59,419 bases of DNA from a virus (IMGVR_UViG_3300048578_000449:1-59419); one strand, 5' to 3'; positions 1,825 to 56,673 are shown, numbered from the stretch's first letter. Translations and numbers: made by a program. The notes: generated by a model not told the origin, from the sequence alone.

Positions 1825-2372
1825 GGTTGCGCCTCACTGTTGGTCGCTACACGAAAGAAAGCGAACCCGTTCCAACTCGTCCCGGTGATCTCGCGCGCGA
1901 GCGCCGAGAGCGAACCGTACACCTTTCCGCGGTACAGGAAGTCGTCCTCGCGAACCAGCACCTCGTGAGTCTCCCGTCGATACACCCTTCGGAGCACGGT
2001 GCCCTCAGGCGGAAGCCTCGGATCGCGAGGCTTTGGCGGTGGCGGTGGCGGTGCAGGCTTCAGTGGTCGAGGACGAAGCTGTCGAGGTCCCGCATCGAGC
2101 AACCGACGTCGCCACGGACGAGGCGCTTCTGCGGAGAGCGCCGCGAGCTTAGCAAGCGTCTCACTCGAAAGCCCACCGAAGGCTAGTTCCTGAATTCGCC
2201 AGGCAATGCTGCGAACCAGGTGCTGACGGTTCCGCGAACGCGTCGGTTCGTTGAAGACCTCGCAGTAGCGAGTGACGAGCTGGTTCACAGTCATGTTCTC
2301 AAGCTCAACGATCTCGGGGAGATCATCTGTAACTTGAGCGAGGTCTCGCTTGAGCGATGATTGCGAATTCAT
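1821..2372 (-). CDS. DUF2924 domain protein
   Basis: LVRSIAWRIQELAFGGLS; PEGTVLRRVY; FLYRGKVYGSLSALAREITGTSWNGFAFF; ATGA-type overlap with the recombinase. Confidence 0.88.
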   Translation of the reverse strand: MNSQSSLKRDLAQVTDDLPEIVELENMTVNQLVTRYCEVFNEPTRSRNRQHLVRSIAWRIQELAFGGLSSETLAKLAALSAEAPRPWRRRLLDAGPRQLRPRPLKPAPPPPPPKPRDPRLPPEGTVLRRVYRRETHEVLVREDDFLYRGKVYGSLSALAREITGTSWNGFAFFRVATNSEAQP

Positions 2373-2411
2373 GGTTCATACTGCCTTATCGAAGAGTCTT
2401 GCTCTTCGTCG

Positions 2412-2444
2412 CACAGCACGACTCGGTTCGAGACGATAAGCAAG
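2412..2444 (-). promoter_or_regulatory. Class-2 promoter-like motif CTTGC-N15-GAGTCGTG upstream of the DUF2924 gene
   Basis: Same 15-nt spacing as the copies at 21227, 23292, 57986 and 58463; most divergent copy. Confidence 0.4.
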
Positions 2445-2535
2445 CAAAGAGCGCCAAGCTGCCGACGTTCCGAAGGGCCAGTGTCGACATATGTCACCCG
2501 GGACCTCTCGGGCCTCGGTGAGCGACGGCTAAACA

Positions 2536-3228
2536 TCACGCAAAGGGATCTACTTCGGCGCTCGTTCCGCGCTCGTAACGGGCGAGCGTCGCTTCGAGTC
2601 GCTGCAAATCCGAGGCACGCAACTCACGCACACGCTGAACTCCAAGTTCGCCGAGCAGCGCGTCCACATCGGCGCGCGGCAGCGCCTTCATGCGTGTGAT
2701 GTATTCCCCTACGAGTGTGGGGTTCAACGGCGCGTCCTCGCTCATCTCTGATTCGGCAGACGTTTCGCCGTTAACGACGGCTTCAAGGTTGAACAACTCA
2801 GCGCGCGCGATTCGCGTCCGCAACTGCTCATCGATCTGCTGCTCAGGCAAAATTGAGTATCGGGTGCGCGAGTCGCCAGCGTCCCCATGACGTTCGATTT
2901 CGAAACTCCACCTGTCCAGGCCGTACTTCGAACGAACGACCAAAACATCCTTGAACCATTGCGTGCCGCCCTCGATCACCTTCATTGTGCCTTCGGGGAG
3001 CACGAAGAAGTTGATCGCCACCCGCAGACTCGGACGCTTCGCGTCAGCTGCATTCTTGGAATCGACGTTCTCGTATCGTTCACCATTCCAGATGACTTCG
3101 CGCGCGTACGGTTCGCCGCAGAAGACCCCTGTTACCTTGTCACCGTTGTTCGCCAGCCGGACGAAGATGCCGCCAGAGTTGGCGTGCTTCTCCGCGAGGC
3201 CTTTCGCTGCATCCCATGCATTTGTCAT
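2536..3228 (-). CDS. Putative single-stranded DNA-binding protein (gp32-like OB fold)
   Basis: FVRLANNGDKV..F.GEP; FEIERHG.AGDSRTRYSILP; acidic/aromatic C-terminal tail EVDPFA. Confidence 0.6.
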   Translation of the reverse strand: MTNAWDAAKGLAEKHANSGGIFVRLANNGDKVTGVFCGEPYAREVIWNGERYENVDSKNAADAKRPSLRVAINFFVLPEGTMKVIEGGTQWFKDVLVVRSKYGLDRWSFEIERHGDAGDSRTRYSILPEQQIDEQLRTRIARAELFNLEAVVNGETSAESEMSEDAPLNPTLVGEYITRMKALPRADVDALLGELGVQRVRELRASDLQRLEATLARYERGTSAEVDPFA

Positions 3229-3282
3229 TTATCGTCTCCTTGTCTTTCGCATCGCCCGCGGTCCTGTGCCCGCGAGTCCCAA

Positions 3283-4107
3283 TCAGGCGTGCCGTCCGAA
3301 AAACGAGCGCGTCCGTTCGACATCCGATGCGAGTGCGAGCAATCTCGACTCAACCATCGGGCGAAGCTGGCGGAGCGTCCGGCTGCGTTCGCGCTTGGCG
3401 CGAGCTAACACCATGGCAAAGGGCTCCGACGCTGCGTCCCAGGGGACATGCCCGTCACGAATGTACGTCTTGAGTGAGATTTCCTGCAGCCGTGTCGCCA
3501 CGACCAGCTCCAGCTTCCGGCGCGGCAACGACTGTCCGACGATTCGGAAGAGCAACTCGGCAGCATCGCACCGGTCCGCTGCGTTGAGCTTTTTCGGAAT
3601 ACGGTCCAAGAACAGCTCCTCGGCGCGCACCGTGCGCTCAAGTGTGCACTGCCACGCCTTGAGCGAGCGTTCCGCATTCAATCGACTGAACACGAATGCC
3701 CGCACACCTTGTCGAAGTCGCGTAGGCAGGTGACTCACGGCCGTCGGCTGAGTGGAGATGGCGACGAGAAAGCCGTCGAGGATCACCTGGTCGAGCTCGC
3801 CCGGGTCGTTCAGCTGTCCGCGGACGTGGCTTCGCAGCATCCGCAGCATCGGCGCGAAAGTGACCAACAGCATGGCGGCCCAAAAGCTCGTCCGCTTACG
3901 TTGGTGCATGCGCACGAGCACTGCGACCAGGTGGTTGCGCTGTGCGTATTCGCCGCAACCACGGCTCCGCAAGGTCGCGAGGATGCTGCTGCTATCCAAA
4001 TACCCGGCAAGTGCAGGTTCGAGTTTCGCTCCGAGTTCGAGATGCGCCCGCGCTCGTGCAGTACTAAGCTCCGCGCGCAGCCGCGCGAATAGTTCATCTA
4101 GTCCCAT
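3283..4107 (-). CDS. Sigma-70/ECF-like phage transcription factor (paralog 1)
   Basis: Region-2-like ELDQVILDGFL; region-4-like LARAKRERSRTLRQLR; GGAGG RBS; clear paralog of 17865..18653. Confidence 0.6.
   Translation of the reverse strand: MGLDELFARLRAELSTARARAHLELGAKLEPALAGYLDSSSILATLRSRGCGEYAQRNHLVAVLVRMHQRKRTSFWAAMLLVTFAPMLRMLRSHVRGQLNDPGELDQVILDGFLVAISTQPTAVSHLPTRLRQGVRAFVFSRLNAERSLKAWQCTLERTVRAEELFLDRIPKKLNAADRCDAAELLFRIVGQSLPRRKLELVVATRLQEISLKTYIRDGHVPWDAASEPFAMVLARAKRERSRTLRQLRPMVESRLLALASDVERTRSFFGRHA
3416..3447 (-). promoter_or_regulatory. Class-1 phage promoter GTCCCC-N21-TTTGC inside the sigma-like gene, facing ssb/DUF2924/integrase
   Basis: Minus strand GTCCCCTGGGACGCAGCGTCGGAGCCCTTTGC with exact 21-nt spacer. 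Confidence 0.6.
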
Positions 4108-4219
4108 GAGTGCCTCCGTTTCCGGCGGGAACGCGGCGCCATCGTGACCTTCAGATCACGTGCGCATGCGTGGGCCTCTGGGACCTCAAGCCGCTCGTGT
4201 TAGCTTTTGGAGCGGAGCG

Positions 4220-4429
4220 TCACGCTCCGACGGCATTCCCGGTCGGAGATGCTTCCGCTCCGACGACCACTTCGTTGATTTCTGAGCAACGTCGGCAGAC
4301 GGCCGTGACCGCTCCCGTCACGATGAACTGGGCCGACCTGTACTTAAGGTGCATACGACCGTATCGCTCAACCCCGATGAGCGTGCCGCATTGGCGGCAT
4401 CGCCACTCCCTTTCGGTTGACTGGTCCAT
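4220..4429 (-). CDS. Small Zn-finger protein, Mu Com-like regulator
   Basis: EWRCRQCGTLIG...AVCRRCSEIN (two CxxC); AGGAG RBS before ATG 4429. Confidence 0.65.
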   Translation of the reverse strand: MDQSTEREWRCRQCGTLIGVERYGRMHLKYRSAQFIVTGAVTAVCRRCSEINEVVVGAEASPTGNAVGA

Positions 4430-4699
4430 CCTAAAAACTCCTCGCCAGCGGCCGCTAACCACTGGACGAGACTGAGTTTCCTCACGGCGAGGAAGGATGG
4501 AGGGCGAAGGGAGGGAGGATCGAGGGAGGCGGCACCGAATCAGCTATGGCAGTAGCGCGTCGACGAACTGAGCCTTTCGAGTCGCTCTGTCTCCGGCTCG
4601 CCCAACTCCGACCCGCCCTGTAGCTCTGCTTTACCATCTGCCCATTGTTCTCGTCGCCCGTTGCAGAATCGCAGGCTTCTATCCTAACCTCCCAGGATT

Positions 4700-11190: not shown

Positions 11191-14100
11191 ATGACCCGCG
11201 TGGCTGTTGCGCATCTAAAGTACTCCACCGGGTTCGAACCCGGTCGGGAGGAGAAAGCAAAGCCAAACTATCAAGTGCTAGAGCTGCGGCACGCGCTGGA
11301 ACGCGTCTACACCTCTGATGCGCATCTCGTCACGTACGTGGTGGACGGCCTTGAGAAGCAGCCACGCATCAACAAGACGGGCCTGCAGCATTACATGCAG
11401 ACCACCGGCAGGCGGCTCGCTGTCGAGTGCTTCTTCTGTGATGTTGACAATCCCGGACACGCGCCATGGACAGACGAACTTTATATGGACGCGGTCTTGC
11501 TTGACTCGAAGCTCGAGATCCTCTCGACGGCGGGCATCTACCATACGAGAGGCGGACGTCGCATTGTACAGCCCCTTGCCACACCGCTCGACGTCGAGGC
11601 GGCCGAGCCACATCTCAAGTACTGGCTCATCCGCCTTGCGGATGCTGGCCTCGCTGTGGACTTCGAATGCAAGGATTGGACAAGGCACTATCGAGTTCCG
11701 TACGTGCGTCGTGACGGCGTGGACGAGCGTCCGGCGTTTATCGATCTCACGCGGATGCGCCCAGTCGAGTTGCCGCCGCTGCCTGCAGTTCCACTCGACG
11801 ACCTGATGCCTCCCTGGGCGCGGAGGAAGAGGGCAAAGGCAAGTGGGTCAGCGCAGCCATTCTCACCAACCGACAAGATAGCGTTCGAGCTACAGCCGTC
11901 CCAAGCCATCATCCCGAAACACTGGCAGCCGGTCGTAGCTCCCGTGGCGGGTGCAATCGCGTCGGTGTTGACGCCCTGGCACGGTCTCTTTCTGACGCTG
12001 GCGGGCGCCATGCTTCGCCTGCGCATCCCTCCGGAAAGCATTGAGGCGCTCGTGGAGAGCATCTCGTTAGCGACTCACGCCGACGATAGGACGCAAGACC
12101 GCGTGAAATGTGCTCGGTCGACACTTGAGCGCTACAGCCGGGGCGAATCGCTTACGGGGCTGTCAGCGCTCAGAGCTGAGTGGCCCGAAGTTGCACGAGC
12201 GCTCGAGTCCGCTGTAGCCATGGTGCGTTTGGGCCCAGCAGGTAGATCTCCTAACGTTGCCGCCGACACGCGAAGTCTCACCGAGATCACCACCGCCCTC
12301 GAGGCCGCCATCGAACAGGCCCCCGTCGGGCTTACGGTCATCAAGGCTGAGTGCGGCCTCGGAAAGACGTATGCCGCGCTCCGGGTGGCCGCGAGGCGCG
12401 CGGTGAAGTCATACGCAAGCGAGCATGCCGCAGGGCTGCGCGCACCAACGGACTCAAAAACCGCCATCTCAGTCGACAAGAACAAGCTCGCGATTCAGTG
12501 CGCGACCGAGCTCGAGACGCTCGGACGCTCAAGCCAGCGCATCTTCGGGCCGCTTTCCCTGCTCGACGCCAATGGGACGCCCATCTGCAAGCTTCACAAG
12601 GTTGCGACGCCCCTCGTCGAAGGCGGGCAACGCATGCAATGGGAACTTTGCGAGCGACGCAACGGTGAAGCGAAGTGCAAGCATTACGACGAATGTCCGG
12701 CGCGCACAGGACAGGAAGGCGACTCACGTAGCCGCATCACTTTTGGCACGCATTCACTGCTCGGCGCCCTCGACGCCGAAGCAGGCTCGACAGGCCTACT
12801 CGTGATCGACGAGGTGCCGGAGTTCCTCGAGACCGTTGCGCTCAATGCCGAAGACCTCGAAGCGGCATTACTATCCGCGGGCACGTCGTTCGAGGCAACG
12901 TACGTTGCGGCGCTCATTCCAGTGCTCTCGGCTTGGTTCGAGTTCTTGAAGCAGGCGCCAGAAGGCGAATCGGTCGAAGCGAGCGAGGCCGCACGTCGCT
13001 TTGCGCATCGCATCCCACCTCACCTCCTCGCAAAAGCCCAGCGCAGCGCGCTGTTGCCTTCGGATGCCGACGCCGTCGAATGCGCCGCTCACACCCCTTT
13101 CCCGGAGAAGCACTGCGGCACGGCTCCCCCAATCTTGAAGCATTGGGTCGACATCGCTCTTGAGATCCCCGGTCAAGCCGCTCGGCTCGGGAAGATCTCA
13201 AAGGTCCTGAAGATAACCCACCACGCAATGGCAAGCGAATACCCGGTAGTGGTCCGGGTCGAAGAGCGACGCGGCAAACGCCAACTGCTCGTGACCTCCC
13301 CCCGTGAGGTGCTCGCACAGGCGCTCCGGCGTGATGGGGCTGTCGTCGTTGCCGACGCCAACGCGGACTTGCACCTGCCCATCCTGAGCCAGGTGGTGGG
13401 CTACGAGCCGCGCTACCACGTGTTCACGGCGCCCGACGGAGCGCCAATCCGGCGGACGATGATTCGCACCCGCAAGGCCACCCGCAAAGCATGGTTTAGG
13501 GCGGGCAAGCTCGATCCTGAGTCGTCGCTCGTCGAATTCGTACGGGCGGCGTTCGCGTGGCTCGAGGAAGACCCAAGCACGGCACTGGTTGGCATCGTCA
13601 CCGTCCCGGCGGTCGAGTGTGTCCTCTTGTACGCCGCGGGAATTGATGAGCCGAAGTGTCTCGCGGACTGGAAGTCCATGGGGCAGCCTAGGGAAGCGCT
13701 AGACGCGTTTTCGGCTGTTCTGGCCCCGACCCTCGACCCTTGGCGTCCGAAGCTTCTAACAGCCCACTATGGAGCAACACGGGGCCTAAACGACATGTCC
13801 CAGGCCGACGCCCTGATCACCCTCGGTGATCCGTGGACCAACTTGGGCGACGCCCGGAGCGATGCGGCGTTCCTGCAGCTGGGAGCGGACTGGGAGGCCC
13901 GCTACACGGCTCGATGCCGAGCCGAGCTCGAGCAGGCCCATGGCCGGCTGAGGACCGTCCACCGAACTGAGCCCGCCCGAGCGCTCCACGTCGGGGCCGT
14001 GATGCCGGGTGGCTCGGGATGGGCAATTGGGCGAGTGGATGTGCGTGAGTCGTCTCGCGATCACCGCACAGCTGACCATGCTGCGCACTCGGGAGAGGCG

Positions 14101-14268
14101 ATGACCGCCGAACAATTCGCACAGGCGGTCAACGTCCTCGGCGGCCTTCGAGCGGCATCCAGGATCCTTGGGTGCTCCCGTGGAACAGTCGCGAACTACC
14201 GGATCGGCAAACGTAGGATCCCGGACGAGATTGCGGAACGCGTGTTGCGAGCCACGCGCCAAGCGTAG
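11191..14268 (+). CDS. Large replication protein: AEP primase-like N-terminus, divergent SF2-type helicase region and C-terminal HTH
   Basis: FFCDVDN (DxD), IYHTRGGRR, KDWTRHYRVP; AECGLGKT, VIDEVP, EQAHGRLR; LGGLRAASRILGCSRGTV. Confidence 0.65.
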   Translation: MTRVAVAHLKYSTGFEPGREEKAKPNYQVLELRHALERVYTSDAHLVTYVVDGLEKQPRINKTGLQHYMQTTGRRLAVECFFCDVDNPGHAPWTDELYMDAVLLDSKLEILSTAGIYHTRGGRRIVQPLATPLDVEAAEPHLKYWLIRLADAGLAVDFECKDWTRHYRVPYVRRDGVDERPAFIDLTRMRPVELPPLPAVPLDDLMPPWARRKRAKASGSAQPFSPTDKIAFELQPSQAIIPKHWQPVVAPVAGAIASVLTPWHGLFLTLAGAMLRLRIPPESIEALVESISLATHADDRTQDRVKCARSTLERYSRGESLTGLSALRAEWPEVARALESAVAMVRLGPAGRSPNVAADTRSLTEITTALEAAIEQAPVGLTVIKAECGLGKTYAALRVAARRAVKSYASEHAAGLRAPTDSKTAISVDKNKLAIQCATELETLGRSSQRIFGPLSLLDANGTPICKLHKVATPLVEGGQRMQWELCERRNGEAKCKHYDECPARTGQEGDSRSRITFGTHSLLGALDAEAGSTGLLVIDEVPEFLETVALNAEDLEAALLSAGTSFEATYVAALIPVLSAWFEFLKQAPEGESVEASEAARRFAHRIPPHLLAKAQRSALLPSDADAVECAAHTPFPEKHCGTAPPILKHWVDIALEIPGQAARLGKISKVLKITHHAMASEYPVVVRVEERRGKRQLLVTSPREVLAQALRRDGAVVVADANADLHLPILSQVVGYEPRYHVFTAPDGAPIRRTMIRTRKATRKAWFRAGKLDPESSLVEFVRAAFAWLEEDPSTALVGIVTVPAVECVLLYAAGIDEPKCLADWKSMGQPREALDAFSAVLAPTLDPWRPKLLTAHYGATRGLNDMSQADALITLGDPWTNLGDARSDAAFLQLGADWEARYTARCRAELEQAHGRLRTVHRTEPARALHVGAVMPGGSGWAIGRVDVRESSRDHRTADHAAHSGEAMTAEQFAQAVNVLGGLRAASRILGCSRGTVANYRIGKRRIPDEIAERVLRATRQA

Positions 14269-18656: not shown

Positions 18657-19775
18657 ATGCCGAAGAAGAAAACCGCAGCGAAGAAGCTCGGTCGGCCCCG
18701 CAAGATCGTCGGCGGCAAGCTCTCGCATGCGGAGGTCGCAAAGGAACTCGTCGAAGGGATCGTCGTCATTGACGAGGGACGCGAGATGCGGCGCGTCCCG
18801 ACCTTGCGCGAGGTCGCCAAACGCTTCGGTGTCTGGCACAGCCTCATCGGCAAGATCGCACAAGCCGAGGACTGCCTCCGGAAGCACGAGCTTTACCGCC
18901 AAGCGCACCCCGAGCCCTTCGATGCGTACGACGAGTGGGAAGCTCGAAAGAAGGCAAAGGCGCGCCCGAAAGCGGCGCTTCGACCGGAACCGGAAGCAGC
19001 GCCAGAACCCATCGGCGGCGCGCCAGGCCTGCGCAAGCGCAAACCCGGCCACCCGAGCCGTCTCGATTGTCCCGTGCCGTGGAACGAGATCGATCGCCTG
19101 CTCGTGGTCGGGGAAAACATCGAGCTGCCCGACGGAACGCAGTCGACGCACTACCCGCCGCTACGCGAGCTCGGGCGGCGCTTCGGCGTGTCGCACTCGG
19201 CGATCGTGAAGTATTGGCAGGACCACCACTGTGAGCGACGGCGCGAGACGGCCCGCCAACGACTCATCGACAAGACCGAGGAAAAACTCATCGAACTTCG
19301 TGCGACGGCAATCGCGGTCTCGAAGGACGACGCGCTTCGGATCATCGACAAGTTCCTGGTGAAGTTCGAGCAAGCGCTCGATGACGATCGCGTGCGGTAT
19401 GACCTGCCGGCTGACTTCAGCACGATGGTCCGCCTGAAGGAGTTCGTCTCGGGCGGTCCGGACTCCCGTCAGGAGACGACGACGACCTTCACGCTCGAGA
19501 TGCTGCAGGAGCGCCACCAGCGGATGCTGCGTGACACCCGCGAGCTGTCCCCGGCGGAGATGGGTGTGGTCGATGCGTCGGGGCACGAGGTCACGCCTGC
19601 ACTCGAGACGAGCGAGGTGGACTCGGAAGTGGACAGCGACGACACGTTGGACCGCGATGCGGGTGAGGCGGAAGCCGATGCAGCCTCACTGTACCCCCCA
19701 GATCGCCCCTTCGAGGACGATGCCGGCCAACAGACCGACGGTGCCCCGGCTTTGGCCGACGAGGAGGAAACATGA
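18657..19775 (+). CDS. Probable terminase small subunit with a duplicated HTH and acidic tail
   Basis: PTLREVAKRFGVWHSLI and PPLRELGRRFGVSHSAI; helical oligomerisation region; upstream of terL. Confidence 0.6.
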   Translation: MPKKKTAAKKLGRPRKIVGGKLSHAEVAKELVEGIVVIDEGREMRRVPTLREVAKRFGVWHSLIGKIAQAEDCLRKHELYRQAHPEPFDAYDEWEARKKAKARPKAALRPEPEAAPEPIGGAPGLRKRKPGHPSRLDCPVPWNEIDRLLVVGENIELPDGTQSTHYPPLRELGRRFGVSHSAIVKYWQDHHCERRRETARQRLIDKTEEKLIELRATAIAVSKDDALRIIDKFLVKFEQALDDDRVRYDLPADFSTMVRLKEFVSGGPDSRQETTTTFTLEMLQERHQRMLRDTRELSPAEMGVVDASGHEVTPALETSEVDSEVDSDDTLDRDAGEAEADAASLYPPDRPFEDDAGQQTDGAPALADEEET

Positions 19776-20011
19776 GCGGTTCTCGGGTGATGCTGCCCGT
19801 CGGCCCGGTGCGGGAGCTCGTGCGTGTGGTGCGCGAGTTCGCTCTGCGCCTAGACGCCAACACCGATTCGGTCCCTGCAGTCCTCGAAGCGCAGCGCCTC
19901 CGCGCGGTCGAAGCGGTCGAAGCGGTCGGAGCGGAGCTCGACGGGGAAGACCGTCGACCGTCGCACGACGTCCGCTTGTCCCGCGCGGCCACCGAAGGGA
20001 GCGACGCGTGA
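19772..20011 (+). CDS. Small hypothetical protein
   Basis: ATGA overlap with terS; GAGGAGG RBS. Confidence 0.45.
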   Translation: MSGSRVMLPVGPVRELVRVVREFALRLDANTDSVPAVLEAQRLRAVEAVEAVGAELDGEDRRPSHDVRLSRAATEGSDA

Positions 20012-20060
20012 CCCGTGCCGCGCCGATGCAGCGGAAGCAGGGCGCCTACGCCGCAAGACG

Positions 20061-20510
20061 GCGCGTCCACCGTCCGTGTTCGGCGCGAAGTGGACGCGCG
20101 CTGGTCAATAAACGGTCTATTGCGCTGGCCATTGGACGGTCCCGCTCGGACCTCCGGCGCACCCGCACCCCGCGAACGTCCGCTTTTAGACAGAAGTGGC
20201 CGTTCGCGCGCAAACCCGCGGCAAAACACGCGAATCTTTGGGGGCCAACGTGGACCCATCGCGCGGGTCACGAACGTCCACTTTTCCCGCCGCGCGTGCC
20301 GATGGCGTCGCGCGAGGCCGTCCTGCCTACCTCGCCCCCGATGGTGCAGACGGGTGGGGGGGTGGTCGGACTTTCCCGGTCCATGGACCGGCTGCCCCCT
20401 TGCCTACCCCCGTTTTCGATAGGGTCTGCTCCCCGCAATTGTCCACTTTCAGCCGTCCCCGACCGGCAAGAAGTGGACAAGTCCAAAAGGGCCTCGGTCA
20501 ATTGTCCACT
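20061..20510. repeat. Array of GTCCAC(TT)-like motifs in both orientations around a 16-bp palindrome; candidate pac/cos or recombinase site
   Basis: IRs at 20061-70/20090-99, 20171-85/20194-208, 20439-48/20471-80; direct repeat CAATTGTCCACT at 20436 and 20499; palindrome CCGGTCCATGGACCGG at 20376-20391. Confidence 0.75.
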
Positions 20511-20553
20511 GCAAGTGACTTTTCGGGGCGAAATTCGCTCCCCGCGCCTGCGG

Positions 20554-21168
20554 TCAGCACGGCAGTTCCTGCACCACCCGAAGCAGATCTTCGTCCGAGC
20601 TGTGGGTGTAGATCATGGTCGACTCAATGGAGGCGTGCCGCGCGAAGCGCTGCGTGAGGCGGATGTCTTTGGTGCGGCGGTAGACGCCCGAACACGCCGT
20701 GTGCCTCAGGCAGTGAAAGTTGAATCGGCGCTCGAAGCCCGCGCGCTCCTGCCACAGCGCGAACGCGCGACGCACTTGCCGCGTCGAGAGTCGTCGACCG
20801 AGTCGGCTGAGGAAAAGCGGCGCATCCGGCGCGAGCACTTCGCCGGCTCGCTCGCGCAGCTTCAGCAACTTGTCGAGCTTCGCTCGCATCCCGTCCGAGA
20901 GAATGATCTCCTGGTGCGACGCTTCCTTGCTGGAACGCTTGAACACGCGCAAGGCGACATGGCGCGCGCAGCGAGCCCCGCCGCGCACATCGCCCACGTT
21001 CAGCGCCACAATCTCGTGCTCCCTGAGTCCGGTCGAGAGCGCCAGGCTCATGAGAACGTGATCGCGGAACCCGTCCTTGTGGCTACCGCTCACGCTAAGC
21101 AATCGAAGCACTTCCGTTTCGGTCAGCGTGCGAACAGGCCGTTTCACTGCCGTGGCGTAGGCGGGCAT
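20554..21168 (-). CDS. Minimal tyrosine recombinase (catalytic domain only)
   Basis: [24 protein letters not shown]...TMIY catalytic residues intact; AAGGAG RBS before ATG 21168. Confidence 0.9.
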
Positions 21169-21194
21169 CGAACAAGCTCCTTCGTTACGTCGCA

Positions 21195-21227
21195 CGTATA
21201 CAGGCTCGCGCGGCGACGCAATTCAAG
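21195..21227 (-). promoter_or_regulatory. Class-2 promoter-like motif CTTGA-N15-GAGCCTGTAT
   Basis: Upstream of the tyrosine recombinase; both half-sites identical to the 58463 copy. Confidence 0.6.
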
Positions 21228-21260
21228 CTTGTTCGAAGGTGACATCCGAAGGAACACGCG

Positions 21261-22691
21261 GTGCTCATCGTAGGTAAACGAGATCCGACCGATCTTGCCG
21301 GATGGCTCTCCACGGAGGCGGGATTCATCGAGAACCTGTGCCACTACGATGGCGAACCTGTCACGCTTGAGCCCTATCAGCGGAGGTTCCTCGACAACCG
21401 CTCGCGGTTCCGGTGGGTGACGAAAAGCAGACAGGTGGGGTTTTCGTTTCTCTTCGCGCTCGAAGCGCTCGCGCGAGCACACCTACGCGATGGCTACACG
21501 GCGGTGTTCGTCAGCTACAACATGGCCGACGCCCTCGAGAAGACCCTCATCGCCCGACAGGTCTTCGAGGAGATGCCACTCGCGTTTCAGAAGAAGCTCA
21601 TCACGGACGCGAAGACCGAGCTTGCCTTCGAGTCGCCCGGTCGCGGCAAACACATCTCGCGCATTCTCTCAGTGCCCTCGAAGGCCCCTCGAGGGAAACG
21701 CGGTGACGTCTACCTAGACGAATTGGCGCACATCCTCAACGACCGCGAGGTCTATCGAGGCTCGACGGCCCTCATCCTGCGTTCCAATGGGCAGCTCACG
21801 GGGTGCAGCACACCGCTTGGGCGACGCGGGATTTTCTGGGAGATCGCAACCGAGGAGCTGCGCAAGTACCCGCACCACTCGCGCATGAACGTGCCCTGGT
21901 GGCTGAGCACCGCGTTCTGCCACGACACGAAGCGCGCCGCGCTCGCAGCGCCGAACCTCACCACCGAAGAGCGCGTGGCCCTGTTCGGCAAGCCCACCAT
22001 CATCGAGCAGTTCGAGTCACTCGCTCTCGAGGACTTCCAGCAAGAGCTCGAGACGCTCTTCGTTGACGAGTCGTATAGCTTCTTCCCCTATGATCTGATC
22101 CTTCCCTGCACGAGCGACGACATCGTCGTGGTCGATGATCCTGCCGCGGTGCGCTCGCCGCTCGGACGTATCGTCGCCGGCTTCGACGTAGGCCGCACGC
22201 GCGACCGCTCCGAGCTTGCCGTCTTCGAACAGGTAGAAGACCGCTTCATGTGTCGCATGATGCGAACCTTCGTGAACACCCCCTTCGCCGAGCAGGAAGC
22301 GCAGCTTCGCTACCTGCTCGGGACGCTTCCCGTCGCGCGCCTATCCATCGACCGAAGCGGAATCGGCATGAACCTCGCCGAAAACCTGTCGCGCGACTTT
22401 CCCCAAGTTGTCCCCGAAAACTTCACTACGGAGTCGAAGGAGCGGTGGGCCACGGACTTCAAAATTCTACTTCAGCGTCGAGACGTGACGCTGGCGAAAG
22501 ATCGCGACCTGGTGGGTCAGATCCATTCCATCAAGCGTCGAGTTCTCGGCTCTGGGAAAGTGAGCTTCGATGCCGAGCGCACGAACCGCGGACACGCCGA
22601 CAAGTTCTGGGCAGTAGCATTGGCATGTCAGCGTGAGCGCACGCTCGGCAAAGGTCGAGGGGTGCAGGTGGGAGTGCGAGTGATTGGATGA
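21261..22691 (+). CDS. terL: Terminase large subunit
   Basis: [13 protein letters not shown] Walker A, YLDELAH Walker [31 protein letters not shown]. Confidence 0.95.
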
Positions 22692-23628: not shown

Positions 23629-23835
23629 ATGCGTAGCGCCCTGAACCTGTTCCTCGTTTCGCTCAAAACACCGTTGGCGTCACCAACGCCTGGGCCCGAG
23701 TTCGAGGTCGAAGCCAAGACCGAGGACTACCTCCTACAGGCGGGTCGCGATCTGCTCGTGTCAAAGGGCTATCGCATCTGCGCACTCATGTTTGGCGTCA
23801 AAGGTCTCCTTGCCTACGTGGAGAAGGCGGAGTGA
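23629..23835 (+). CDS. Small hypothetical protein preceding the portal
   Basis: GAGG RBS before ATG 23629; GTGA overlap with the portal. Confidence 0.5.
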   Translation: MRSALNLFLVSLKTPLASPTPGPEFEVEAKTEDYLLQAGRDLLVSKGYRICALMFGVKGLLAYVEKAE

Positions 23836-25634
23836 TTGCAGACGACGCCGCTCGCGAGGCGAGCGCCAGCCTGGGAGTGATCCTGAAGGCGATGGTCGTT
23901 GGTTCAACTGTCGCAGATCCGGCCAGTCGCGGCGGTGGCGACAGCCAAGCCAACGCCTTCACCACAGCCGGCGCGCTGGTGCCACCGTACGAGCCCGATG
24001 TCCTCTGCACCCTGTTCGAGCACTCGAACTCGCTTCGCCAGAACGTCGACGCTTACGCAACGAACATTGATGGGTTTGGCTACCGCTTCGAGCCTGCCAT
24101 CGATCTCGAATCCGAAGACGCACAGCAGAAGGTCGCCGACACGATGCTGCTCGAGTTCGAAGCGGCTCGAGCCGCTGGGACGCTCCCGGTAGGCACCTCC
24201 CCCGCCCCGACCCCTGATCAGGTCGCCGCTCGACTCGAAGACCTCCGTCGCCTCGCACGAGCCGAGAAGGGTCGGCTCGAAGCCTTCTTCGACTTCTGCT
24301 GCTTCGACCATTCCTTCGTCGATTTGCGCCGCCGCACGCGACAGGACCTCGAAGTCACGGGAAACGCCTATTGGGAGGTACTTCGAGACGGAAAGGGTGA
24401 CGTCGCACGTTTCGTGTACGTGCCTGCCCATACGGTCAGGCTCATGCCAATCGATCGCGAGCCGACGGAGATGCAAGACCGAGTTCGCGTATCGCCGGTC
24501 ACCTTCGAAACGGTCACGTCCCGACGCCGCCTTCGCCGCTTCATTCAGATCCAAGGCTCCGAAGTCGTCTACTTCAAATCGTTCGCCGATCGCCGCGCCG
24601 TCTCGCGAGCATCGGGACGCATCTTCCCCGACGTTGCATCCCTCAAAGCCGAAAGCGCAGCTGACGCTCCTGCCACGGAGCTTCTACACTTCGCCATCCA
24701 CTCGCCGCGATCGCCCTACGGCGTGCCCCGTTGGGTGGGCACGCTGCTTTCGGTGCTTGGCTCGCGGCAAATGGAAGAGGTCAACTACCTCTACTTCAAC
24801 AACAAGTCGGTGCCCCCGCTCGCGTTGCTCGTGTCGGGAGGAAGACTCTCCGAGTCGTCGGTACCGCGCATCGAGCGCTTCATTGAAGAGAACCTCAAGG
24901 GCAAGTCGAACTTTCACAAGATCCTCATCCTCGAAGCCGATGGCGCAGGCGCTGGTGACGGCAGTCGAGCCAAGATTGAGCTACATCCGCTGACCGACGC
25001 GCAACAGAAGGATGCGCTCTTTCAGACCTACGACGAACGCAACATTGACAAGGTCGGCAGTTCGTTCCGTCTACCGCGTCTCCTTCGGGGTGAGACCAAG
25101 GATTTCAACCGAGCCACCGCCGAAAGTGCATTGCGATTCGCCGAAGACCAAGTATTCCAACCGGAGCGCGACGAGTTCGATTTTCTCATGAACCGTCAGA
25201 TCTTGGCCGATCTCGGCATCCGCTTCTGGCGCTTTCGCTCGCAGACGCCCGTCACTCGAGATCCAGAGCGAATGACGGAGATGGTCGAGCGGCTCGTGCG
25301 CGTCGGCGTTCTCACGCCCGAAGAGGGGCGCATGCTCGCGGGCGACATCTTCAATCGCGAGTTTCGCAAGATTGGCGACGATTGGACGAAGCGCCCCATC
25401 ACCCTCACCCTAGCGGGGATTCAGACCGGAGTGGAAGACCTGCGCACGCAAGGGGCGCAACCGGGCCTGCTCAACAACGCCAAGCAACTGCTCGCGTTGC
25501 GAGAGGAGTTGCGCCAGGAGGAGGCGCGTCTTTCCGACCGGCGCACGGAGCTCGCGCGTCAGTACGCCTCCCCCGAACGTCATTCGATACCTCGCGAGGA
25601 GTTCGAGCGCTGGTTCGAAGGGTCGCAGCCATGA
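23832..25634 (+). CDS. Phage portal protein (PBSX/XkdE-like)
   Basis: DLEVTGNAYWEV, YGVPRW, NYLYFNNKSVP, FRLP.LLRG, FNRATAE. Confidence 0.92.
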   Translation: MIADDAAREASASLGVILKAMVVGSTVADPASRGGGDSQANAFTTAGALVPPYEPDVLCTLFEHSNSLRQNVDAYATNIDGFGYRFEPAIDLESEDAQQKVADTMLLEFEAARAAGTLPVGTSPAPTPDQVAARLEDLRRLARAEKGRLEAFFDFCCFDHSFVDLRRRTRQDLEVTGNAYWEVLRDGKGDVARFVYVPAHTVRLMPIDREPTEMQDRVRVSPVTFETVTSRRRLRRFIQIQGSEVVYFKSFADRRAVSRASGRIFPDVASLKAESAADAPATELLHFAIHSPRSPYGVPRWVGTLLSVLGSRQMEEVNYLYFNNKSVPPLALLVSGGRLSESSVPRIERFIEENLKGKSNFHKILILEADGAGAGDGSRAKIELHPLTDAQQKDALFQTYDERNIDKVGSSFRLPRLLRGETKDFNRATAESALRFAEDQVFQPERDEFDFLMNRQILADLGIRFWRFRSQTPVTRDPERMTEMVERLVRVGVLTPEEGRMLAGDIFNREFRKIGDDWTKRPITLTLAGIQTGVEDLRTQGAQPGLLNNAKQLLALREELRQEEARLSDRRTELARQYASPERHSIPREEFERWFEGSQP

Positions 25635-25930
25635 AGGTCAAGCCCACCGATAAGCGGCCATGCAATCTCAAACGCGGCGAGGTGCGCCGCGTCTCTCAGG
25701 ACGTTCGATTTCCCTTGGTGGGTTATCACGTCTGCTGCCCGCGTTGTGGATTCGTGAGCGTCGCCTTCCAGAACCAAGATGGGATGATCATCACGGAAGG
25801 CGCCACGTCTGAGGCACTGACGTTTTCCCAACCGCTCACCTGCATCTACTGCGCAATTCTCATTTACATCGTTGACGGTGACGTCCGCCTGGAGGCAAAT
25901 GGCAATGAACGACATCTTGTTTTCCGATGA
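25631..25930 (+). CDS. Small Zn-binding hypothetical protein
   Basis: CCPRCG and CIYC; ATGA overlap with the portal. Confidence 0.55.
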   Translation: MKVKPTDKRPCNLKRGEVRRVSQDVRFPLVGYHVCCPRCGFVSVAFQNQDGMIITEGATSEALTFSQPLTCIYCAILIYIVDGDVRLEANGNERHLVFR

Positions 25931-26990
25931 CGCCCTGCTCACGGTGAGCGAGGCAGGGCTGTTCCTCGACGACGTCTTCGAGCGGCTACTCGCCTTGCCC
26001 TTGGCCAAGGCTTTCGACCTCGGGACCACACGGGACTTCGAGCGCGCCGTCTCGCTTCTGGGCGCCAAGCTCCGCGCGTCGAGCCGCAAGTCCGACGCGC
26101 AAGCGGTCAGGGACTCTCTTTCGGTGCTCGATGTCGATTGGCACGCAACACCCCCCGAGCAACGAAGCCGGCTCATCGCACGCGCCCTCTCGACCGCCGG
26201 CCGCGCGCTTGCTCCAGCCTTACGCGCCATCGAGGCGCCGCTCTCGAACGCGGCGAGTGCCGTGGTCTATGCCACGCGGACTGACAGCCGCCGTCGGCAG
26301 AAGCTCGTCATCGGCGCCGACTTCAATGCGCTTGATAGGCGCATCATGACTCACGTGGTTCGGTCCCAGGGCAACTTCGTCCGAGACGAGCACGGAAGGC
26401 GTCTCGACGACTTCGGTGAGCGAGCCCGAGAAATTGTCGCCATTGGACTCGAGCAGGGCCTCGGTCGAGACGACATTGCGCATGCCCTCCACTCGGCAGC
26501 AAGCGCGGTCTTTGTCTCCCGCTCGCGAAGCTACTGGAACGTCATCGCAAGCGCCTTTGTCGGCCAGGCTCGATCCTTCGCGCAGATGAGCAGCTACGCC
26601 GAGGCCGGCGTGCGGCGCTATGTTGTGGAGGCGGTACTCGATGAAGTCACGACACCCTGCTGCAGATTTTTGCATGGAAAGACATTTTCGGTGGGCGAAG
26701 CACTCAAGCGCTTCGATGCCATTGAGCGGCTCGATGCACCCGAGCGCATCAAAGTCGTGGCTCCCTGGATCCGTCAGGGCATGGACCCCGAGAGCCGTCG
26801 GTCCGTCCTCTACGTAAATAGCGCATCAGGGCGCGTCCCACTCGCCGAGGTGTTGCGGACCGGAAACGGTAACCACGACGACCTCGGCGAGTTTCGGGCA
26901 ATGATCAACGATCGCAAGCTCGGTGAGCTTGGGATCGGGTTCCCGCCGTACCACGGACATTGTCGAACGACGACGCTGGCGGTAGTCTAG
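25899..26990 (+). CDS. Minor head / head morphogenesis protein (MuF/SPP1 gp7-like)
   Basis: AVLDEVTTPCCRFLHGK...FPPYHGHCRTT; GGAGG RBS. Confidence 0.88.
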   Translation: MAMNDILFSDDALLTVSEAGLFLDDVFERLLALPLAKAFDLGTTRDFERAVSLLGAKLRASSRKSDAQAVRDSLSVLDVDWHATPPEQRSRLIARALSTAGRALAPALRAIEAPLSNAASAVVYATRTDSRRRQKLVIGADFNALDRRIMTHVVRSQGNFVRDEHGRRLDDFGERAREIVAIGLEQGLGRDDIAHALHSAASAVFVSRSRSYWNVIASAFVGQARSFAQMSSYAEAGVRRYVVEAVLDEVTTPCCRFLHGKTFSVGEALKRFDAIERLDAPERIKVVAPWIRQGMDPESRRSVLYVNSASGRVPLAEVLRTGNGNHDDLGEFRAMINDRKLGELGIGFPPYHGHCRTTTLAVV

Positions 26991-27587: not shown

Positions 27588-27809
27588 ATGTCCGACAACG
27601 CAAAGCCGAGCAGTCCCCCGACTGGGAACAGCGAAGCGCCGACCAATCCGACCGGTGAGCGAGAAGCTGCTGAAGCGCGACTGGCGCGCGAGCAGCAAAA
27701 GCCGACCGATTCAAAGGATGCCCCCGTAGTCTGGCCGCGCGACATGAGCGCACCCGAGACGGAAACGCCCGAGTGGGGCCGCGATCCGGACCGAGGCGAC
27801 CGTGGATAG
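27588..27809 (+). CDS. Small protein with a WPxD motif shared with the scaffold C-terminus
   Basis: GGAG RBS; VVWPRDM compared with the scaffold VGWPLDL. Confidence 0.55.
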   Translation: MSDNAKPSSPPTGNSEAPTNPTGEREAAEARLAREQQKPTDSKDAPVVWPRDMSAPETETPEWGRDPDRGDRG

Positions 27810-29178
27810 GCAGTGTGCGGCCGCGCTAGCTCGCGCCCGACGCGTTCTAGCGACTAAAAACAATCCCCTCGACGCCATCGAGAAGACCATCTGGGGCTCC
27901 CCCGCGGGTAAGAAGCGAATCGCGAATCGCCTCGCGGCGATGCTTCCCGCTCACGAGACGTACGTCGAACCCTTCGTGGGAAGTGCCGCGGTCCTGTTCG
28001 CCAAGGAGCCCGCTTCGGTCGAGGTGATCAACGACGCCGATCCGGAAATCGCTGAAGCCTATCGACTGGTGAAGGGGCTGAGTCGCCCAGCCCTGAACAA
28101 GCTTCGCCAGATGACGTGGACGGGCGATCCGGCGACCTTCAAGAAGCTCGTCGAGTCTCAGCCCACCGACGATATCGAGAAGCTTCATCGCTTCCTCTAC
28201 GTCACCCACTTCTCCTACGGCAAGCTTCGCGGCAAGAGCTTCAGCCCGTCGGGCGTAGGCGTCCACGCCAAGACCATCAGTCGCATCGAGCAGTTCGCGC
28301 CTCGCCTGCGGCACGTCAAGATCTACGGCGGCGACTACGAAGGGGTTGTCCGCAAGTACGACGGCAAGGACACAGTGTTCTTCCTCGATCCGCCCTACCC
28401 TGGCTACAACGTCGACGTCGGCGAGTCGGACTTCGACGAGGAACGCTTCTTCAAGCTCTGTAAATCCCTCAAGGGAAAGTTCCTCATCACGTATGGGATT
28501 CGAGGCCGCTTCCCAAAGATGGTGAAGGACTCGGACTTCTGGACGAAGCGGATCCGCACCCCTCGCACCATCTCCTCGATGCGTGGCGTGGGCGGTCCGA
28601 AGACGCTGACGCAACTACTCGTTGCCAACTACGAGCCGACAACCAAGGCACTCGCGGACGACTTCGAGTTGCTCGACTACGAGGTAGAGGAGCTCGAGGC
28701 GGAGTTCGCGAAGGACTCCACCCTCATCAAAGGTCTCGATCCGAACGACGAGCGCTACGTCCTCGGCATCGTGCTCGAGCCTGAGGTGGTCGACGCGCAG
28801 GGCGACATCTACTCGGCGGAGGAAATCCGCCAAGCCGCACACCGGTTCATGGAGGAGTTTGGCGGCCTCGGGTTGATGCACCGGATGCGGGTCAACGACC
28901 AGGTGAAGGTGCTCGAGACGTACTTGGCCCCGTCCGACTTCACGCTTGGCGAGACGACCATTCGCAAGGGCACGTGGCTGCTCGCCGTGCATGTGCTTTC
29001 CGACGAGCTCTGGGGTCGTGTGAAGGATGGCGACCTAACGGGCTTCTCCATCGGAGGCTCCGCACGTCGAGTGCCCGAAGGCGAGGCAGCGAGTTCGTCA
29101 CGACAACCCAACGCTGGAGCCACACCGAATGGCACGCCGCAAAACGCTCCTGCTTCACCGCGCACGGAGGCGACATGA
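27802..29178 (+). CDS. Fusion: D12-class N6-adenine DNA methyltransferase (Dam-like) and XkdF-like prohead serine protease
   Basis: [32 protein letters not shown]; then [35 protein letters not shown]. Confidence 0.88.
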
Positions 29179-30122
29179 GCACGCAACCCGAAAGCGATCC
29201 CGCGGTCAATCGCCTCCTCGACATGGTGGTCGAAGAGGTCTCGCTCGTCGATCGCGCAGCCAACAATCGCAAGTTTCTCATCGTCAAGAGGGACCACAAC
29301 ATGAACGAAGACACGGATATCGAGAAAGCCGATGGAGATAGTCCACCGGCAGAAGACGGGAGTGAGGGGCTGGGTGGCGGCTCGCCTCTGGGTGCGGCGA
29401 TTGCCGCTCTCGAAAGCCTGACCTCCATTGTGGAAGCGCTCGGCTCCCTTGGAGCCAATCGCGCCGACACGCGTCTCGCGGAACTCGCCCGAGAACTGCG
29501 TGACACTGCCGATCAGATCCTTTCCCAAGTGGGCGAAGGCGGCGAGGAGCAGCCCGCCGGAGACGGAGTTCCGAGCACGGACGACGCCTTGAACGCCGCC
29601 GAGGACATGCCCCCCATCGAAAGCCGCGCGAAGGCGAAAGCCTCCGGCGCCAAGAAGCCGCCTTTCGGAAAGAAGCCCACCGGCAAAAAGCCGGGGAAGA
29701 AGAAACCCGTCGAGCCCGACGAAGAGGACGACGAGACCGCTGACGACGAAGAGGACGACGAGACCGACGACAACTTCGCTCAAGCCAAAGCGGCACTCGG
29801 CAAGCTCACCGAGGCGCTCGGCGGCATGGGTCGCCCCGTGAATAAGGCGTCGTCGAAAGCGCCAACGACGGAAGGCAACACCGCCGAGCTCACCACCACG
29901 GTCACGAAGCTCACCGAGACTGTTCAGGCGCTCACCGAAACCGTCCAAGGCTTTCAGCAAAGACTCGGACGAGTCGAGAAGCACTCCGGTGTGCCCAATA
30001 GCGCGCCCCCGGCCGAACACGTCGCAAAGACGGTCGAAGCCGCCGTCGGCTGGCCTCTCGATCTCAACCACCCGATGGACCGCCAAAGCGTCGACAAGGC
30101 GGTCTCGTTTCACGACCTCTAA
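29175..30122 (+). CDS. Capsid scaffolding protein carrying the protease [10 protein letters not shown] strand at its N-terminus
   Basis: [27 protein letters not shown]; acidic/low-complexity and coiled-coil segments; directly before the MCP. Confidence 0.7.
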
Positions 30123-54698: not shown

Positions 54699-54730
54699 GT
54701 CCCCTAACAGCGGGGCGCGAGGCCCTTTGC
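54699..54730 (+). promoter_or_regulatory. Class-1 promoter before the tail fibre/lysis genes
   Basis: GTCCCC-N21-TTTGC-N6-TGAG. Confidence 0.7.
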
Positions 54731-54768
54731 CACCTCTGAGCGTCTCACGTCGGCGCCGCAACAATCGC

Positions 54769-56673
54769 ATGGCCGCCCGCCTCGACTACTTCTTCCGACA
54801 ACGAGTCACCGAAGCCGAGCTCGATCTCGGCTTCGAGCTGCTCGAGCAAGCCGACCGAAACCTGGCCGCAGACATTGGTCTTCACGGCGTGGTGAGCGGA
54901 GCGGTGCCATCACCGCATTCCCCAGTTGCCGACTTGAGCATCGACTTGACCGCTCCGGGGCGCGCCTACGACCACCTCGGGCAACGGATCTTCTTCGGCA
55001 CCGGACAGACCGTGGACTGCTCAGTCGATCTATCGGGGATCCCAACGGAGGTTGGATCGGCCGGAAACGAACGCTGGATGGGCGTCTTTCTGCGCTTTCG
55101 ACGCTTGCTCTCGGATGTGCGCACCGACGGCAACTCCCAGCAGGTGTACTTTCGGCGAGACGAATCCTTTGACGTAGTGGTGCGCCAGGCTGCCCAAGGC
55201 CCGATCGGCTCGGCACAAAAGCCGGCACTGGTCGAAGATGAGCTCCTGGTGTGCGACGTGCTTCGGCGCGCAGGACAGACCCAAATCCTGGCGAGCGACA
55301 TCGACACCTCGCGACGCCAAGCCTTCATCTTCGCCCAGGCAAACTCCATTGCGCTAGAAATCGCGCGCTGGTCGGTGCTGCGCCCCGCAGCAGCAACCGC
55401 GCAGGCCGCACTCGACGAAACGGACGCGGAGCTTGCGGCCCACTTCTCGGGCGCCGGACGCCGACACCCGGGAACGGCCATCGACGTGGCGCCGCGTGGG
55501 TTCGTGACGTCGAACACCGTGCAGGCGGCACTTCACGAGCTTATCGACAAGCTCACCTCGACCGCGATGAACGACTCGGGCGCGAGCCGCATCGGCGTCG
55601 ATGGGCTCGTCGGTAACCCCAATCTCATCGCCGCCGGCACGCTTCGCTCGCAGCTGCTCGCGCTGCTCGATCTCATCAACGGTCACGTCGCCAATCCGAA
55701 CGGTGCCCACGACGCTCGCGCCATCTCGGCGCAGCCCTTCGATTACGTTTCCGCGACGAACGTCCAAGCGCAGCTGAGCGAAGTCGTCGCCGATTTAAGG
55801 TCAACCGCGCCCAATGACTGCGGTTCCGATCGGGTGGGTGTTCAGGCCGTGTCCGGCGCGTCGTTCTCCGTAGGACCGGCTTCGCTCACGGGGGCCTTCA
55901 TCGGACTCATCCTCGCACTCGAGCGGCACACGTTGTTTGGCGCCCCAGCACATCCCTCGCGGGCCATTCTGCTCGACGACAACGCCGATCGATACGCCGG
56001 GAACACCGTCGCGGACGCCCTCCAGGAAGCAGGCTCAGCATTCGAAGGAGACCACTTCCGCGCCAACGAACCGAACCCGGGACAACACCGCACCATTCAC
56101 CAACCCGTCCTCGGTGGCGGACGAGTCCTCATCTGGGAATCGGCGGGGCAGGACACGGCCCGATCGCACCTCCGGGTCTACCTGGACGAGGACGGCGTGT
56201 GGTTCGTGTTCAACGCCGCTTGGGATGGCTCGGGCTGGCAGAAGCAAAGCCTATCCATCCCTGCTGGCGGCATGCGGATTTGGGGCGCGGGCATCGAGAC
56301 CTTCCACGAGAACAGCTCGAACGCCTCATTTCTCGGCTGGACCAACACGCTTCGCGTCGCACTCGACAACCCAACCAGCAATTCGGGATTCGAGTCTCGA
56401 GGTGTGATCCGCGAAGTTGGCCGATGCGGCAGTCGCATCCGCAACGCCGAAGCGGGCCAACGCACCCTTGTCACCGGACATGGCGTGACCTTTCGAACTC
56501 GCTTCGCCTCCCCGCCGTCGTCGGTGACGCTCACGCCGCTCTACGTCTCACCCAACACGCCGACGGCCACCGCGGACGCCATCACCGTCGATGGCTTTGC
56601 GTTTTGGATGAGCGCCAACGTTGCCACCAACGCCACCGCGCTTTGGGTCGGCACCTACACCGCGATTGCATAA
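54769..56673 (+). CDS. Tail fibre / receptor-binding protein
   Basis: RLDYFFRQRVTEAEL baseplate-attachment N-terminus; three H-x-x-x-A-I...VQAAL-like repeats; C-terminal lectin-like domain. Confidence 0.7.
   Translation: MAARLDYFFRQRVTEAELDLGFELLEQADRNLAADIGLHGVVSGAVPSPHSPVADLSIDLTAPGRAYDHLGQRIFFGTGQTVDCSVDLSGIPTEVGSAGNERWMGVFLRFRRLLSDVRTDGNSQQVYFRRDESFDVVVRQAAQGPIGSAQKPALVEDELLVCDVLRRAGQTQILASDIDTSRRQAFIFAQANSIALEIARWSVLRPAAATAQAALDETDAELAAHFSGAGRRHPGTAIDVAPRGFVTSNTVQAALHELIDKLTSTAMNDSGASRIGVDGLVGNPNLIAAGTLRSQLLALLDLINGHVANPNGAHDARAISAQPFDYVSATNVQAQLSEVVADLRSTAPNDCGSDRVGVQAVSGASFSVGPASLTGAFIGLILALERHTLFGAPAHPSRAILLDDNADRYAGNTVADALQEAGSAFEGDHFRANEPNPGQHRTIHQPVLGGGRVLIWESAGQDTARSHLRVYLDEDGVWFVFNAAWDGSGWQKQSLSIPAGGMRIWGAGIETFHENSSNASFLGWTNTLRVALDNPTSNSGFESRGVIREVGRCGSRIRNAEAGQRTLVTGHGVTFRTRFASPPSSVTLTPLYVSPNTPTATADAITVDGFAFWMSANVATNATALWVGTYTAIA

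Follow-up and report, generated by a model that had tools for sequence, protein, structure and literature searches.

A Dam-type DNA methyltransferase fused to an XkdF-type prohead protease in a provirus with relatives in myxobacteria: a probable means of loading an enzyme into the virus head

Why should a DNA-modifying enzyme be made as one polypeptide with a protease of virus head assembly? The question is raised by an open reading frame (ORF) of 458 codons in the IMG/VR provirus IMGVR_UViG_3300048578_000449:1-59419 (59,419 bp, approximately 62% G+C; this whole stretch is referred to here as the window). A preliminary description had read this ORF of the head operon as a complete D12/Dam-type DNA methyltransferase (MTase) followed by an XkdF-like protease domain, and that reading is borne out by the analysis presented here, as both Pfam domains match far above their cut-offs. 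It is argued below that the fusion is probably a way to load the MTase into the virus head. We infer that the MTase is encapsidated; its injection into the next host is a speculative extension of that proposal.

The D12 MTase family (PF02086) was matched at residues 36-231 of the fusion ORF with 58.8 bits, against a cut-off of 22 (60.4 bits in a six-frame search). This is the only match of the family in the record, and PF01555 had no match there. The motifs named in the preliminary description are both in place: EPFVGS (residues 56-61) precedes DPPY (residues 196-199), and we take these to be the S-adenosylmethionine (AdoMet)-binding motif I and the catalytic motif IV, respectively. F58, G60 and D196-Y199 are invariant among 59 aligned relatives, and such strict conservation of the two motifs is a sign that catalysis is under selection. 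In the structural model, predicted local distance difference test (pLDDT) values of the MTase part are mostly above 90, and its top fold match in Foldseek is Mcbe1 (7m6b_A, E 3.4e-13, TMt 0.80), with E. coli Dam chains matching at TMt 0.73-0.77. A PDB sequence search returned Dam-type MTases only, and no solved XkdF relative was found in that search. The fold and the order of the motifs are those of E. coli Dam (2g1p), T4 Dam (1q0s), DpnM (2dpm) and Mcbe1 (7m6b); these known enzymes, unlike the domain studied here, are stand-alone proteins, and identity to the Dam-type structures is only 15-19% in structural alignments. Judged by its motifs and its model, the MTase appears to have kept its catalytic apparatus intact within the precursor. 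GATC occurs at 1.32 times expectation by simple word counts, a value that is uninformative for the target site of the enzyme.

The second domain, PF14550 (XkdF, Peptidase_S78_2), was matched at residues 313-423 with 106.3 bits (cut-off 24; 109.4 bits in the six-frame search). Two candidate catalytic residues, H360 and S416, do not vary across 56 XkdF sequences. When the XkdF part was modelled alone a pLDDT of 75 was obtained, with only moderate confidence around S416. The best match of this model in VIA-align was T4 gp21 (5jbl; Z 6.2, root-mean-square deviation 4.0, 106 residues aligned), the sole chain at Z of at least 5 among 48,161 compared; the varicella-zoster virus protease came second at Z 4.2. 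Foldseek also ranked T4 gp21 first (E 0.04, probability 0.99). PF14550 matches the 59-kb record once, and PF04586, PF01343, PF00574 and PF03420 gave no match there at E up to 1; across the five families searched, the fusion ORF is the only recognisable prohead protease in the record.

The GTG start codon of the fusion ORF is better supported than M47, at which the gene caller on the record began the protein (412 amino acids). Relatives conserve residues 1-46, within which the conserved part of the MTase core already begins; GAGG is present upstream at the usual distance; and the stand-alone MTase 7m6b has its first residue just three positions ahead of the one that aligns with T29. At the other end of the gene, the stop codon overlaps the start of the scaffold gene (ATGA), and a GGAGG word is situated within the last codons of the fusion gene. 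This arrangement suggests that the two genes are probably translationally coupled, which would also explain the conservation in relatives of the protein end, '...EAA'. Two weaknesses that the preliminary description had itself foreseen were examined, namely a fusion caused by a sequencing error and an internal start producing separate proteins. The first is refuted, in that both Pfam domains are present in all 120 of the listed relatives (of 561 significant matches), which derive from independent contigs, and no internal stop was found within the match. With regard to the second, no in-frame ATG, GTG or TTG with a Shine-Dalgarno-like word was detected in residues 264-323, where the only candidate is the TTG at L290; nothing thus suggests that a free protease is made from an internal start, although this is not proof.

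The fusion is not peculiar to this provirus, as 395 relatives were found in species-representative genomes, some of which are complete chromosomes of cultured strains. Among the best 80 of the 395, myxobacterial names account for 61, the label 'Deltaproteobacteria' alone for 10, and other or unspecific labels for nine; these nine are mostly metagenome bins, for which mis-binning is possible. Cultured, non-pathogenic myxobacteria also carry members of the family, among them Myxococcus xanthus and Corallococcus strains whose genomes are complete; examples of carriers are M. xanthus AM003, Corallococcus coralloides KYC2213 and Myxococcus sp. Y35. Gene order is kept in 76 related viral loci: portal, MuF, XkdF with its preceding part, scaffold, capsid, a small protein and the adaptor. 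A capsid homologue was observed downstream in 66 of the 76, and in five of the remaining ten the sequence ends too soon.

The preliminary description had suggested a survey of the domains N-terminal to XkdF in relatives, and such a survey revealed varied cargo. The XkdF part alone was searched against 1.84 billion cluster representatives, which gave 6,065 matches, and the best 150 were analysed. The protein ends within 40 residues after the domain in 128 of these, while at least 150 residues (median 387) are found before the protease in 123. At E values up to 1e-5, the Pfam families identified as cargo were D12 MTase (28 representatives), InPase (25), DNA ligase (nine) and Tad3 (three), and more distant relatives have long stretches before the protease that match no Pfam family. 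Across relatives, the region before the protease varies as cargo would.

Cargo domains can also be multiplied or displaced. Relatives of approximately 720 amino acids carry two MTase domains (five of 13 aligned sequences); the possibility that these proteins are MTase-XkdF-scaffold fusions was considered and rejected, since two MTase domains are evident in the alignment. One ORF (L036:1153-5625 (+), 1,491 amino acids from stop to stop) contains four D12 MTase stretches, Tad3 (PF25185, 34.6 bits) and a C-terminal XkdF. Tad3 is an inhibitor of Thoeris. DNA ligase is the cargo in loci L053 and L066, and the presence in L050:2900-5287 (+) of an MTase before and InPase after XkdF indicates that cargo can also follow the protease. 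In another locus, L040, an ORF with three MTases (956-3580) and the XkdF ORF (3999-4463) lie approximately 400 bases apart, and this split may represent separate genes, a frameshift or a broken copy. LAGLIDADG_3 was observed in one, and Hint_2 in one, of 75 XkdF-bearing cluster representatives, which hints at an intein.

Sequenced phages were also searched. No match covering at least 80% of the whole protein was obtained by tblastn against 50,697 phage records, the best match, in Pseudomonas phage Phipami28, being a stand-alone MTase, and megablast with 10 kb of the head module gave no match; near relatives of the window may be missing from the collection searched. Lactococcus phages of the P335 type were considered as an isolated example of the fusion and were rejected: the product of phage 28201 matches PF14550 only, with no MTase. 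The label 'DNA methyltransferase' on the XkdF gene of that phage (NC_031013, L080 4878-5927) looks mistaken. The XkdF-scaffold gene bears the same label in several P335-type GenBank records, as does phrog_1530.

The scaffold encoded directly downstream offers a candidate for what might bring such a fusion into the procapsid. Scaffold residues 10-39, approximately (29202-29291), show much stronger conservation than the remainder of the protein, with R13, L14, V22, V25, D26, A29, N30 and K38 invariant in 30 sequences. This segment was matched to the N-terminal end of phrog_3017, 'head maturation protease', which, like gp33 of Lactococcus phage 28201, is a canonical XkdF protease-scaffold protein. 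The gp33 protein resembles the window in that PF14550 follows portal and MuF and precedes the capsid, and in that a segment of the type V-S-x-V-D-x-A-A-N ... F-x-h-x-K is present in both. The difference lies in the arrangement. The gp33 chain consists of the segment (residues 8-27), XkdF (residues 39-155) and scaffold, with no cargo, whereas the window has cargo, XkdF, a stop/start, the segment and scaffold. Locus L078 has the segment before XkdF, as in gp33. In the six frames of the window the segment was found once, at the N-terminus of the scaffold, with no copy within the fusion ORF. In 66 of the 76 related loci it is situated downstream of XkdF on another ORF, in one it precedes XkdF within a single ORF, and in nine it is absent by pattern; among the 150 representatives it was never observed upstream, and was downstream in the same chain in five. 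The XkdF ORF and the segment-bearing scaffold gene are not always adjacent, as from 1.5 to 4.2 kb separate them in L041, L044 and L065.

A complex prediction for the XkdF domain and scaffold residues 1-65 gave a score of 0.65, compared with 0.06 for the best of three controls. Of 80 solved complexes 58 scored that high, as did two of 110 mismatched pairs, although these calibration counts hold only roughly here because our own alignments were used in the prediction. At least 86% of contacts are shared between the runs, and partner pLDDT is at least 52. The predicted interface places scaffold residues 10-27 and 34-37 on protease residues 410-427 and 354-360, including S416 and H360. These results do not, of course, show that the protease docks on the scaffold, but they support it, and such docking would explain the entry of the fusion into the procapsid.

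The preliminary description had further drawn attention to short motifs, composed of a hydrophobic residue, any residue, lysine, and alanine or threonine, that flank the MTase and recur near the N-termini of other head proteins. All of them are present: AIEKT (residues 25-29) and TTKAL (residues 280-284) in the fusion ORF, ILKA in the portal, LAKA in MuF, IEKA in the scaffold and LEKA in the capsid. Their conservation is good in every protein save the scaffold. Across 59 aligned relatives, K28 and K310 never vary and both K282 and T29 are kept in at least 90%; the three lysines fall in low-confidence loops or linkers of the model. In multi-domain relatives, pairs of lysine and a small residue repeat at both ends of each MTase unit and directly before XkdF. 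Expressed as h-x-K-[AGST], where h is hydrophobic, the site is kept at portal K19 in 88% of 33 rows, at MuF K46 in 95% of 41 and at capsid K9 (LEK/A) in 96% of 55; capsid K98 is also conserved. The portal and MuF have exactly one such site each in at least 80% of rows (K19/A20 and K46/A47), and these two lysines mark the switch from variable N-terminal to conserved sequence. To regard the sites as processing sites is reasonable but unproven; only their positions, at domain borders and at the border between variable and conserved sequence near the N-termini, are suggestive of processing. A literature search on ul36 and N-terminal sequencing gave no usable capsid-processing data.

The following course of events is proposed, and in our judgement it stands an even chance of being correct: the scaffold recruits the fusion, the protease trims the head proteins and cuts itself at the linker lysines, and the 254-residue MTase stays in the head. 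Binding to the conserved segment at the scaffold N-terminus would draw the XkdF domain into the procapsid as this assembles, and, with that segment after rather than before the protease in this clade, the N-terminus of the protease would be free to bear cargo. Inside the procapsid the protease would cut after the conserved lysines, the candidate self-cuts being K28/T29, K282/A283 and K310/G311, and the other candidates portal K19/A20, MuF K46/A47 and capsid K9/A10. The MTase so freed would be too large to exit via the capsid pores. It might then, as a matter of speculation, be ejected with the DNA and methylate the incoming genome or otherwise counter restriction early. A more sweeping version, which we consider unlikely to hold as a whole, would have the protease and scaffold act as a device in two pieces: with the segment transferred to the scaffold, the protease is docked and perhaps switched on there, its N-terminus serves as a general socket for cargo, and the cargo, cut at lysines, is delivered with the DNA. 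Such a socket would accept one to four Dam-type methylases, Tad3, DNA ligase and InPase, a set concerned with anti-defence and DNA care. Methylation of the incoming genome by enzyme from the previous host forms part of this proposal.

A number of points weigh against loading and processing of the MTase in the head. The conserved h-x-K-[AGST] sites per protein are no more numerous than in the large terminase (TerL), a control not expected to be a protease substrate, which has one (K55, 92% of 13 rows); the count is thus at chance level. The motif, moreover, was chosen after looking at the sequences, the scaffold IEKA (K51) is not conserved among relatives, and the border lysines of the MTase might belong to the MTase subfamily as such and have been copied with the domain. 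The complex score is the model's own confidence, and the confidence of the protease model around S416 is moderate; the gp21 match, which agrees with a fold of the assemblin/prohead-protease type, is a weak one (Z 6.2; Foldseek E 0.04). A second protease may lie beyond the record, the completeness of which is 56% (CheckV). A literature search found no virion proteomics, cleavage or methylome study of any member, and no publication on which sites XkdF-type proteases cleave. Finally, late co-expression with head proteins fits equally well an enzyme that acts in the cytoplasm before assembly.

That last alternative is possible, if rather less than probable. It supposes that the fusion ties MTase synthesis to the late head genes, that progeny DNA is methylated in the cytoplasm before packaging, and that the MTase copies which enter procapsids with the protease are degraded or functionless there. 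The location of the gene within the late head operon and the catalytically intact appearance of the MTase in the precursor agree with it. Tad3 as cargo in relatives would make sense in the cytoplasm too, at the time when capsid proteins appear: some Thoeris systems are reported, in the available part of an editorial (PMC13728456), to be set off by major head proteins at a late stage of infection, and the Tad3 cargo consequently leaves the question unsettled. Co-expression, however, does not necessitate covalent fusion, and the fusion, its flexible linker and the border lysines have persisted over hundreds of diverged relatives and many cargo types. The protease must also enter the procapsid, and whatever is fused to it goes along unless cut off first. 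A structural or DNA-handling role inside the head (e.g. in binding or organising DNA), rather than catalysis in the next host, is improbable. Other phages do have internal head proteins with structural roles, and from one to four MTase copies can be chained in relatives, but the AdoMet-binding and DPPY motifs would hardly be expected to be invariant in 59 relatives if the domain served structure alone. The chance that the fusion is an artefact, whether through a frameshift introduced in sequencing or assembly or through the reading of two genes as one, is negligible. Nothing was found in its favour, the M47 start altering the N-terminus only, and it is refuted by the two domains shared by every listed relative, by the 395 relatives in representative genomes and by the uninterrupted reading frame.

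The features of the fusion ORF and its surroundings are listed in Table 1. The ORF sits between MuF and the scaffold and capsid genes, within the late head operon. Genes for an adaptor, tail sheath and tape measure, and one for a PD-(D/E)XK nuclease, are also present in the record. The gene set of portal, terminase, capsid, sheath and tape measure, together with the serine recombinase, which is probably the prophage integrase, marks it as a temperate myovirus-like element. The stop codon of the 73-residue ORF directly upstream overlaps the GTG of the fusion gene, so that the small ORF ends eight bases inside it. By blastp the small ORF matches similarly placed ORFs in 18 related loci, best over the last 29 residues, and it matched no Pfam family. 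Three long ORFs are likewise free of Pfam matches, at 11191-14268 (+), 19531-21273 (+) and 54727-56673 (+) (1,025, 580 and 648 amino acids, respectively); the second of these also has no PHROG, overlaps the start of the terminase gene and may be no gene.

Table 1. Features of the MTase-XkdF fusion ORF and of the genes around it, in positions of the window
Feature	Position	Strand	Remarks
Large serine recombinase	463-1824	-	Resolvase, Recombinase and zinc-ribbon domains; near one record end
Large terminase	21261-22691		
Portal	23832-25634	+	PF04860, phrog_12
MuF-like minor head protein	25872-26990	+	PF04233
Small ORF, 73 aa	27588-27809	+	Conserved, directly 5' of fusion gene
MTase-XkdF fusion ORF, 458 aa	27802-29178	+	PF02086 and PF14550
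N-terminal leader, residues 1-28	27802-27885	+	Predicted helix 2-19, then loop ending at K28
D12/Dam-type MTase domain, residues 29-282	27886-28647	+	PF02086, motifs, fold
Linker, residues 283-310	28648-28731	+	K282/A283 to K310/G311; pLDDT <50 at 297-313
XkdF-type protease domain, residues 311-426	28732-29079	+	PF14550; H360, S416
Low-complexity C-terminal tail, residues 427-458, and stop	29080-29178	+	pLDDT <50
Scaffold, 315 aa	29175-30122	+	Conserved N-terminal segment, then low-complexity and coiled-coil-like sequence
Major capsid protein, HK97 fold family, 309 aa	30146-31075	+	PF05065, phrog_1623

Several known systems invite comparison. The internal proteins of T4 are separate proteins that carry a short N-terminal capsid-targeting peptide, and gp21 cuts them after Glu. 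T4 cargo is directed to the core of the prohead, where the prohead protease trims it, and a like course is proposed here; the differences are that the present cargo is covalently joined to the protease and that the candidate sites follow Lys.

The closest published design is that of the phage polyvalent proteins, which were predicted to be packaged in the virion and delivered (Iyer et al. 2017, J Bacteriol, PMC5512222). In the passages of that paper available to us, assemblin-like peptidases are always at the C termini of these proteins and probably process them during assembly. Like the fusion ORF, they hold disparate domains in one late-gene polypeptide with the peptidase in C-terminal position, and the InPase described there is also a common cargo in the XkdF clade. 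The MTases described in those passages differ, being of EcoKI/TaqI-like type and nearly always accompanied by a superfamily 2 (SF2) helicase and LPD36, whereas the fusion has a D12/Dam-type MTase and no helicase. XkdF is not named in the text available, although an architecture of D12 and assemblin might be present in the figures or external files of the paper, and neither a relocated scaffold segment nor Lys-small sites were met in the available passages. To read the protease as a tag for loading cargo is accordingly reasonable but not new, the general design having been published in 2017 (PMC5512222, as far as its available part extends). A literature search found no description of a D12-XkdF fusion. 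What may be new is the D12-XkdF clade of Myxococcota prophages, the placement of the segment on the scaffold, together with the docking predicted for it, and the lysine sites conserved among relatives.

A precedent for an MTase carried in the head is DarB of phage P1, a head-component DNA methyltransferase that shields injected DNA from restriction (available part of PMC5512222). DarB is a very large EcoKI-type MTase-helicase with no sequence relationship to the D12 domain, and its incorporation depends on other Dar proteins rather than on fusion to a protease. The features of the DarB-type dyad were not encountered in the fusion ORF, which matches PF02086 and PF14550 only.

If the MTase does travel in the capsid, each newly infected cell would receive from these phages an enzyme of their own for marking DNA, an anti-restriction route that is otherwise documented only for the unrelated DarB of P1. 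The pair of protease and scaffold peptide would constitute a simple natural cargo loader for HK97-fold capsids, which would be of interest for phage engineering. The occurrence of the family in cultured myxobacteria makes the polyvalent-protein prediction of 2017, as set out in the available part of PMC5512222, directly testable in those organisms.

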